Below are positions 40,222 to 40,517 of a stretch of 64,000 nucleotides of DNA, piece after piece. The notes beneath the pieces were generated by a model. That model was not told the origin of the DNA. It ran no database searches and saw only the letters and a program-made list of their open reading frames with translations. Position 1 is the stretch's first letter. Each line of letters starts with the position of its first letter. Origin of the DNA: Myxococcales bacterium. GTDB lineage: Bacteria; Myxococcota_A; Bradymonadia; UBA7976; UBA1532. The stretch spans positions 111,047 through 175,046 of the forward strand of contig JACKDN010000006.1 in the NCBI GenBank assembly GCA_020633465.1. Direction: 5' to 3'. Position numbers and translations under genes: made by a program.

Positions 40222-40410
40222 TCTTCACTCCCGAGTCGAACCCCGTCTGCCGTGGCACGCGGCGTGCCAGGGCGCGGGGCGGTCGTTGCGTCGCGCGGGC
40301 ACGGCAGACCGTGACGTCGAGGTCTCGGTGTGGGACGTGCGGGCGTCAGTTTAGGGGGGATGGGGGTGCGGGGGCGAGGGGGGTGGGGTCAGGGGCCTTC
40401 GGGCAGGGAA

Positions 40411-40482
40411 AGGTCAAGGTCAAGGTCAAGGTCAAGGTCAAGGTCAAGGTCAAGGTCAAGGTCAAGGGCAAGGTCAAGGTCA
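40411..40482 (-). repeat. hexanucleotide microsatellite (AGGTCA)12 = (TTGACC)n on the gene strand, in the promoter region of the surface-protein operon
   Basis: 11 perfect units plus 1 variant (AGGGCA). Lies ~190 bp upstream of the 40221 start codon. Confidence 0.9.
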
Positions 40483-40517
40483 AGGGGGCGCTGGGGTGGG
40501 TTGGGGCTCGGTTGCGC

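Follow-up and report, generated by a model that had tools for sequence, protein, structure and literature searches.

The hexanucleotide repeat that separates an acyl-CoA dehydrogenase gene from a surface-protein operon in this myxobacterial genome is best read as a labile spacer microsatellite, generated by slippage behind the dehydrogenase gene, rather than as a promoter or a demonstrated switch, a reading to which we assign a probability of about 0.6. The tract itself is a real, evolutionarily labile intergenic simple sequence repeat, i.e. a known kind of feature. It had first been described as a run of near-consensus sigma-70 -35 hexamers whose register might be altered by changes in unit number. 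The window, meaning the whole 64-kb stretch of DNA that was analysed, comes from a metagenome-assembled genome (MAG) labelled 'Myxococcales bacterium', and it is on this metagenome assembly that the exact copy number of 12-13 units rests.

Tandem Repeats Finder delineated a period-6 array at 40410-40485 (12.7 copies, 97 % matches, score 145), and a probe of three units gave 11 overlapping matches, as against 0.00 expected from 100 shuffles. The array thus consists of head-to-tail units in the 1-6 bp range at a density far above chance, as microsatellites do, and the existence of the microsatellite proposed in the sequence-only reading is confirmed. The count of 12 units on the gene strand also stands, but not their uniformity, since the third unit is TTGCCC; read along the minus strand, two copies of TTGACC (40483-40472) are followed by the variant (40471-40466) and then by nine further copies of TTGACC (40465-40412), these last nine units forming a perfect run of 54 nt. 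Within the 64-kb window, the tract is the sole perfect repeat having at least four copies of a unit longer than 4 bp, and it is also the 72-nt stretch with the lowest G+C content (50 % versus a mean of 73 %).

The tract occupies an intergenic region of 296 bp, and all of the genes neighbouring it are on the minus strand (Table 1). Because its first unit begins 34 nt beyond the TGA stop codon of the acyl-CoA dehydrogenase gene (40520-40518), it is as much the 3' flank of that gene as it is the upstream region of the operon. Downstream, 190 nt separate the last full unit from the ATG (40221) of the first operon gene, which agrees with the distance of ~190 bp originally given. The description of the repeat as lying in the operon promoter was therefore half right, i.e. 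the repeat is indeed upstream of the surface-protein operon, but it sits in the spacer behind the acyl-CoA dehydrogenase gene. The four operon genes overlap by 4, 4 and 1 nt, and the N-terminus of the first operon protein is signal/lipoprotein-like. Pfam matches uphold the FG-GAP/lectin/TSP3, FG-GAP, PD40 and M23 assignments made for the operon, whereas the MYXO-CTERM match of the M23 protein falls under the curated cut-off (17.6 versus 20 bits) and the TolB-like match is weak. The same four-gene cassette recurs in other Myxococcota with different upstream neighbours and is, for that reason, taken to be a real operon-like unit. In the other genera (L002 5001-12299; L003 and L004 5001-11507), the cassette has 4-nt overlaps and ~50-56 % identity, and its members encode an FG-GAP/lectin protein, an FG-GAP/TIG protein, a protein of 260-324 aa and an M23 peptidase; its upstream neighbours are a GMC oxidoreductase and a LysR regulator in one instance and a histidine kinase and a GerE regulator in the other.

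Table 1. Positions of the repeat, its flanking genes and the conserved or compositionally distinct segments of the spacer
Feature	Position	Strand	Sequence, annotation or basis
Acyl-CoA dehydrogenase gene	40518-41672	-	Pfam Acyl-CoA_dh_N/M/1; 100 % identical to MCB9536021.1
C-run-rich 34-nt spacer, stop codon to tract	40484-40517	-	Partly conserved in relatives
Core microsatellite, 12 units	40412-40483	-	TTGACC x2, TTGCCC, TTGACC x9
Degenerate 13th unit	40406-40411	-	TTTCCC; 2-mismatch match
78-nt stretch with top sense-strand C/G (5.0)	40349-40426	-	C residues evenly spaced; candidate Rho-loading (RUT-like)
Conserved block 1	40346-40354	-	CTAAACTGA; alignment; contains -10-like TAAACT (40353-40348)
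Conserved block 2	40308-40324	-	GACCTCGACGTCACGGT; alignment; imperfect palindrome
Conserved block 3	40255-40269	-	TGGCACGCCGCGTGC; sigma-54-type -24/-12 element, palindromic
Fourth conserved island	Downstream of tract		CGGGGTT[C/G]GAC; alignment
First operon gene (724 aa)	38047-40221	-	Pfam FG-GAP_3, Lectin_C (C-type lectin), TSP_3, TIG; same length as MCB9536020.1
Second operon gene	36164-38050	-	Pfam; FG-GAP protein
Third operon gene	35385-36167	-	Pfam; PD40 propeller, TolB-like match weak
Fourth operon gene	33808-35385	-	Pfam Peptidase_M23

Evidence on the behaviour of the tract comes from relatives that were found by a protein search with the acyl-CoA dehydrogenase and whose contigs keep the gene order. 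All of them are 96-97 % identical to the window in the dehydrogenase gene. At the orthologous site, L211 and L212 carry (TTGCCC)2 + TTACCC, while L001, L213 and L214 carry (TTGCCC)3 + TTACCC, and L215 has ~9 interrupted units (TTGACC TTGACC TTGCCC TTGCCC TTGACC TTGCCC CTGACC TAGCCC TTGCCG), giving alleles of 2, 3 and ~9 units in relatives versus 12-13 in the window. Identity in the dehydrogenase gene is 99.1 % for L211/L212, 99.8 % for L213/L214 and 98.1-98.8 % between the two groups, and the 2- and 3-unit alleles are thus found among strains that are 98-99 % identical in the adjacent gene. Since orthologous sites in close relatives differ in unit count, and do so by whole units, slippage-type change is established, and the comparison of copy number across strains that had been suggested earlier comes out in favour of a variable tract. 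Judged from these alleles, the gain or loss of whole units is a repeated event, also between closely related strains. The unit sequence likewise drifts between lineages (A versus C at position 4), and the nine perfect units of the window point to the recent expansion of one variant. The retention of a tract at one site in three lineages that are ~4 % apart in the adjacent gene could reflect selected hypermutability, as could the run of nine perfect units, which is unusually long for a bacterial intergenic repeat. More distant acyl-CoA dehydrogenase loci (P0126 and P0127; 84-87 % identity) have no tract and are not syntenic downstream. Exact-protein look-ups with the window's two proteins and P0121 returned no contigs, and a metagenome scan with the conserved 18-mer CACACCGAGACCTCGACG yielded 93 matches, of which 0 were orthologous by blastn.

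Two further observations were made on the contigs of relatives. In L001, L211 and L213, one nucleotide is missing from the first operon gene (GGCGGC to GGC-GC) shortly after the signal peptide (L001 335-545, L211 1501-1711 and L213 1431-1641, aligned to window 40221-40020), and the same deletion is implied for L212 by a matching 47-aa gene call. The deletion splits the gene into ORFs of 47 and 662 aa (GCA_0467661xx-3xx assemblies); because the same change is present in L001, L211 and L213 and implied in L212, the frameshift looks real, and the gene looks to be either a pseudogene or the source of a protein without a signal peptide. Separately, L216 has, 3' of a more distant acyl-CoA dehydrogenase gene (1300-1385), a long near-perfect inverted repeat, GGGGGTCAAGACTCGCTACTTGACATA ... 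TATGTCAAGTAGCTAGTCTTGACCCCC, that is unrelated to the tract.

The initial proposal had been that the TTGACC units are tandem sigma-70 -35 boxes and that slippage could re-phase or shift the -35, as in phase or strength variation; as a model, the -35 would move relative to a -10 and the operon would be switched on or off. In its favour, TTGACC matches five of the six positions of TTGACA, the tract is upstream of the operon and on the gene strand, and the unit count does differ among relatives. However, a scan of 39900-40900 gave 0 sigma-70-like promoter sites on either strand, and no -10-like hexamer is located 15-19 nt past any unit of the tract. Inside the array, the hexamer 16-18 nt after a unit is CCTTGA, CTTGAC or TTGACC, and the hexamers 15-19 nt after the last unit range from GGCCCC to CCTGAC, with the nearest TAnnnT (40353-40348) being 58 nt from the last full unit. 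Hence, the tract neither overlaps a -35 or -10 element nor occupies the spacer between the two, as the repeat of a phase-variable promoter would. The TTGCCC of the relatives is a poorer -35 match than is TTGACC, and the fact that relatives carry such units indicates that the tract hexamer is not under constraint. Finally, the ATG is 190 nt away, and the conserved promoter-like blocks in between all sit on the operon side of the tract, each at a constant distance from the ATG, such that a change in copy number would leave the geometry of the candidate core promoter intact. The mechanism of tandem -35 boxes re-phased by slippage is thus not supported; the likeness of the tract to a -35 box is coincidental, and the on/off switch is very improbable.

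The distribution of the repeat in other genomes bears on the same point. When each species was represented by a single genome, (TTGACC)n arrays with five or more units turned up in at least 112 other species, drawn from many phyla, and had 5-23 copies. By a crude classification, 45 arrays were intergenic, 40 coding and 29 at contig edges, and there was no orientation bias relative to flanking genes as called, also crudely, from GC3 and length. Because TTGACC arrays are so widespread in both coding and intergenic DNA, and without orientation bias, the likeness to TTGACA is uninformative. Some genomes have several separate (TTGACC)n arrays, including L137, L173 and L207 in Rouxiella aceris, L116 and L197 in Kofleriaceae SMAG_U14365, and L105, L150, L186 and L190 in the MAG 'bacterium isolate 2_bin.9' (72 % G+C), which has at least six; in such genomes, the hexamer acts as a dispersed microsatellite family.

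Candidate promoter elements lie elsewhere. Alignment of three lineages (the window, L215 and the L001 group) identified four conserved non-coding islands, all downstream of the tract (Table 1). The TAAACT in block 1 is the only TAnnnT kept in all three lineages, and, as read from the sequence, there is no good -35 at 17-18 nt upstream of it. Block 2, an imperfect palindrome, is a candidate regulator-binding site. Block 3 has GG at 40268-67 and GC at 40256-55 and reads TGGCACGCC[G/A]CGTGC (40269-55) across the lineages, the corresponding site in the window being TGGCACG-CCGC-GTGCC (40269-40254). When set against the sigma-54 consensus used for Myxococcus xanthus, TGGCACG-N4-TTGC(T/A) (PMC9765219), it matches seven of seven positions of the -24 element, plus the TGC of the -12 element. 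One site in the window has this -24/-12 pattern, and ~0.98 would be expected by chance in 128 kb of strand. The distance of TGGCAC-N6-TGC to the ATG is exactly 48 nt in all three lineages, with a 10-nt indel elsewhere in the region, and block 3 thus has both the GG/GC spacing of a sigma-54-type element and a position that is kept in related genomes. In more distant genera, the cassette lacks the box in its upstream region, and six-frame translation of the 64 kb revealed no GAFTGA/Walker-type motifs of enhancer-binding proteins. Being palindromic, block 3 could instead be an operator. Overall, the lipoprotein operon most likely starts from the conserved elements downstream of the tract, with the sigma-54-type TGGCACG-N4-GTGC box as the best promoter candidate, implying a putative use of sigma-54, and the TAAACT block as the second. 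A 10-nt perfect inverted repeat, GTCTGCCGTG / CACGGCAGAC (40245-40254 / 40300-40309), brackets the sigma-54-like box in the window and is lost in L001 and L215. A permissive-threshold Rfam scan of 39800-40900 returned chance-level matches only, and an unfavourable covariation term spoke against a conserved RNA structure in the stretch from block 1 to the ATG.

Besides its repeat, the spacer is distinguished by its composition. On the sense strand, no other part of the window is as C-rich and G-poor as the segment separating the stop codon and block 1, which has a 120-nt GC skew of 0.58 that is ~4.7 sd off the mean and the extreme for the window, and a 78-nt C/G of up to 5.0 versus a 99.9th percentile of 2.69. 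Among 57 gene 3' flanks, that of the acyl-CoA dehydrogenase gene has the highest C/G (2.6); the idea that C-rich 3' flanks are a general feature of the window was rejected, as this flank is a single outlier among gene ends. In the relatives, too, the non-repeat spacer is rich in C (C/G 2.4-4.5) despite poor sequence alignment, and what is conserved in the spacer is composition, not sequence. The TTGACC units have a C/G of only 2 as against 4.5 for the flanks, meaning that expansion of the tract dilutes the C-rich signature. The minimum free energy (MFE) of the tract is 0 kcal/mol on both strands, on which ground a slipped-strand hairpin was rejected, and the intergenic RNA as a whole is no more stably folded than its shuffled versions (z = -0.9). 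A small ORF through the tract, in the (LT)n frame and ending at a TGA in block 1, was likewise discarded, given that the indels between lineages are not multiples of three.

The criteria of RhoTermPredict (PMC6407284) combine a Rho utilization (RUT) site with a pause, the former being an untranslated segment, 78 nt or longer, in which C outnumbers G (C/G > 1) and C residues recur every 11-13 nt. Over 40517-40300, C/G is 2.2-5.0, all of the segments tested have C residues so spaced, and folding indicates the low RNA secondary structure of a RUT. Since a C-rich, unstructured spacer is thus accompanied by GC-rich hairpins within 150 nt downstream, the region conforms to the published RUT-plus-pause pattern, as trained on E. 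coli, Bacillus and Salmonella and applied here to a genome of 73 % G+C. There is no intrinsic terminator between the acyl-CoA dehydrogenase gene and the operon. By these criteria, we infer that the spacer is a candidate for loading Rho and thereby insulating the operon from the upstream transcript. The same spacer composition predisposes the plus strand to fold into G-quadruplexes. The window has 11 canonical motifs, of which two flank the tract, at 40354-40395 and 40484-40506, and the first of these (G6 AT G5 TGC G5 CGA G6 T G4 TCA G4) is alone among the 11 in having four runs of at least 4 G. The motifs beside the tract fall on the template strand, and, in the 2-3-unit lineage, the repeat as read on the opposite strand, (GGGCAA)n, is itself a G-quadruplex-type motif.

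The spacer-microsatellite reading can be set out as follows. The tract would be a (TTGMCC)n hexanucleotide repeat made by slippage in a non-coding spacer, where a short ancestral (TTGCCC)n seed gained an A-variant unit that, in the lineage of the window, then expanded to nine perfect copies. The C-run-rich, G-poor and unstructured spacer would serve the upstream transcript as a Rho-loading, terminator-insulator region. Transcription of the operon would begin at the sigma-54-type box or the TAAACT block, both below the tract. The tract would then precede the transcription start by ~170-240 bp if the sigma-54 box is used and by ~70-140 bp if TAAACT is. Changes in copy number would lengthen or shorten the spacer, with an effect that is probably near-neutral and at most mildly modulatory. 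Were the length of the tract to matter, the likeliest route, albeit one that we consider doubtful, would be that the tract belongs to the insulator or upstream region and varies its length, akin to the nadA tract discussed below and not to a spacer switch.

Several other explanations compete with the spacer-microsatellite reading. The tract might be a contingency locus, in which its length tunes read-through, or the distance or helical phase to the operon promoter, and so gives heritable, reversible differences in expression. The copy-number alleles among close strains, the nine perfect units (arguing for recent, ongoing slippage), the secreted or surface nature of the proteins encoded downstream (the usual cargo of contingency loci), the location of the tract inside a RUT-like region and the lack of an intrinsic terminator between the two genes are all in keeping with this, and distal repeats are known to modulate promoters (PMC2791445) and 5' UTRs (PMC12721329). 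Nonetheless, upstream of the tract there is only the 34-nt spacer and then coding sequence, i.e. no conserved element to re-space; the sequence and number of units vary freely, from 2 to 13; and the repeat, unlike that of hmw1A, forms no hairpin with the neighbouring RNA. Furthermore, because its first operon gene is frameshifted, the 2-3-unit lineage shows no sign of selection on the system. A contingency locus is, on balance, unlikely. A narrower version, in which a hypermutable tract within a Rho-loading spacer is a length-tunable insulator controlling read-through from the housekeeping dehydrogenase gene into a sigma-54-controlled surface-protein operon, is decidedly improbable; if true, it would provide a free-living, non-pathogenic myxobacterium with a heritable, contingency-type rheostat of cell-surface composition.

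The TTGMCC direct repeats might also be iterated half-sites for a regulator, with unit number setting occupancy, e.g. the upstream activator sequence of a sigma-54 enhancer-binding protein or a response regulator site. Compatible with such an array are the TTG-CC common to both unit variants, the GACC/GGTC that also occurs in block 2, and a position ~170-240 bp above the sigma-54-type box, a distance at or past the top of the range that is usual for upstream activators. Yet a 6-bp period puts successive sites on differing faces of the helix, the 2-3 units of some strains amount to barely one dimer site, no regulator or enhancer-binding-protein gene is nearby, and the same arrays are found in unrelated phyla and within genes; on balance, a protein-binding array is scarcely probable. 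A more mundane concern is that the tract exists but that its length in the window was inflated by metagenome assembly. The source is a MAG, and about one-quarter of public (TTGACC)n arrays are at contig ends, implying that assemblers struggle with them. Against an artefact, the tract, at 72-78 nt, fits within a 150-nt read, it lies inside a 384-kb contig, the internal variant unit anchors the register, and independent assemblies of relatives have a tract at the same site, making inflation of this kind a slight risk. The spacer-microsatellite reading remains the one that we prefer.

Comparison with known systems helps to place the tract. In promoter-spacer phase variation, as in the TA repeats of Haemophilus influenzae hifA/B and the homopolymers of Neisseria opc and porA, the repeat sits between the -35 and -10 and changes the length of the spacer. 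These are also slippage-prone repeats at surface-protein genes, but the TTGACC tract differs in having no -10 with any unit. The TAAA tract of Neisseria meningitidis nadA is a distal-promoter simple sequence repeat (Metruccio et al. 2009, PMC2791445), and it resembles the TTGACC tract in being a short tandem repeat above the core promoter of a gene for an adhesin-like surface protein, with a unit number that varies among strains. However, the nadA tract is situated between defined NadR operators, with an IHF site, and its unit number alters operator spacing (PMC2791445), whereas nothing is conserved upstream of the TTGACC tract except the end of a coding gene, conserved blocks being downstream only. 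The TTGACC tract further differs in its 6-bp unit of drifting sequence and its free-living myxobacterial host. The (ATCTTTC)n repeats of H. influenzae hmw1A/hmw2A, the length of which is inversely related to expression in hmw1A, are transcribed in the 5' UTR and pair with a G-rich arm in a hairpin that is cleaved by RNase III (PMC12721329, PMC8262952). Although the two have in common multi-copy units of >4 bp, a location upstream of an adhesin-type gene and a position outside the -35/-10 spacer, the TTGACC tract has no pairing partner, its downstream sense flank is C-rich rather than G-rich, and the likely transcription start is downstream of it. A 5'-UTR repeat hairpin of the hmw1A type was excluded by folding (MFE 0; z = -0.9; unfavourable covariation term).

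As for the RUT sites described by RhoTermPredict (PMC6407284), the spacer shares with them a length of at least 78 nt, C > G, spaced C residues, little structure, an untranslated location directly past a stop codon and a hairpin within 150 nt, but RUT sites are not normally built of microsatellites, and the Rho dependence of the TTGACC spacer is a prediction only. It is the generic prokaryotic intergenic microsatellite that fits the tract without further assumptions, given the same perfect head-to-tail units, the same length polymorphism among strains, a similar erosion by point mutations, seen in the interrupted units of L215, and a unit that is present in many unrelated genomes; no difference needs to be invoked.

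If the tract merely drifts, the result is a useful negative, in that near-consensus -35 hexamers in a row do not then amount to evidence for a promoter, and such claims of -35 arrays can be settled quickly by looking at close relatives. If, instead, copy number were to tune read-through or the promoter, the tract would be among the very few repeat contingency loci outside host-adapted pathogens and would tie microsatellite slippage to Rho-dependent termination.

Two other repeats in the window deserve mention. Between 56453 and 56511, four copies of CAACTTGAC(T), each containing TTGAC, are spaced at 15 bp within a 382-bp intergenic region that is bounded by a plus-strand gene ending at 56409 and a minus-strand gene at 56792-57739, and they have the look of direct repeats or of reiterated binding sites. 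At 21446-21611, an imperfect tandem array of period 17 (also scored as 52), with ~9.6 copies and the consensus GCCGCGCTGACTCGGTC, adjoins a minus-strand gene at 21595-22086.
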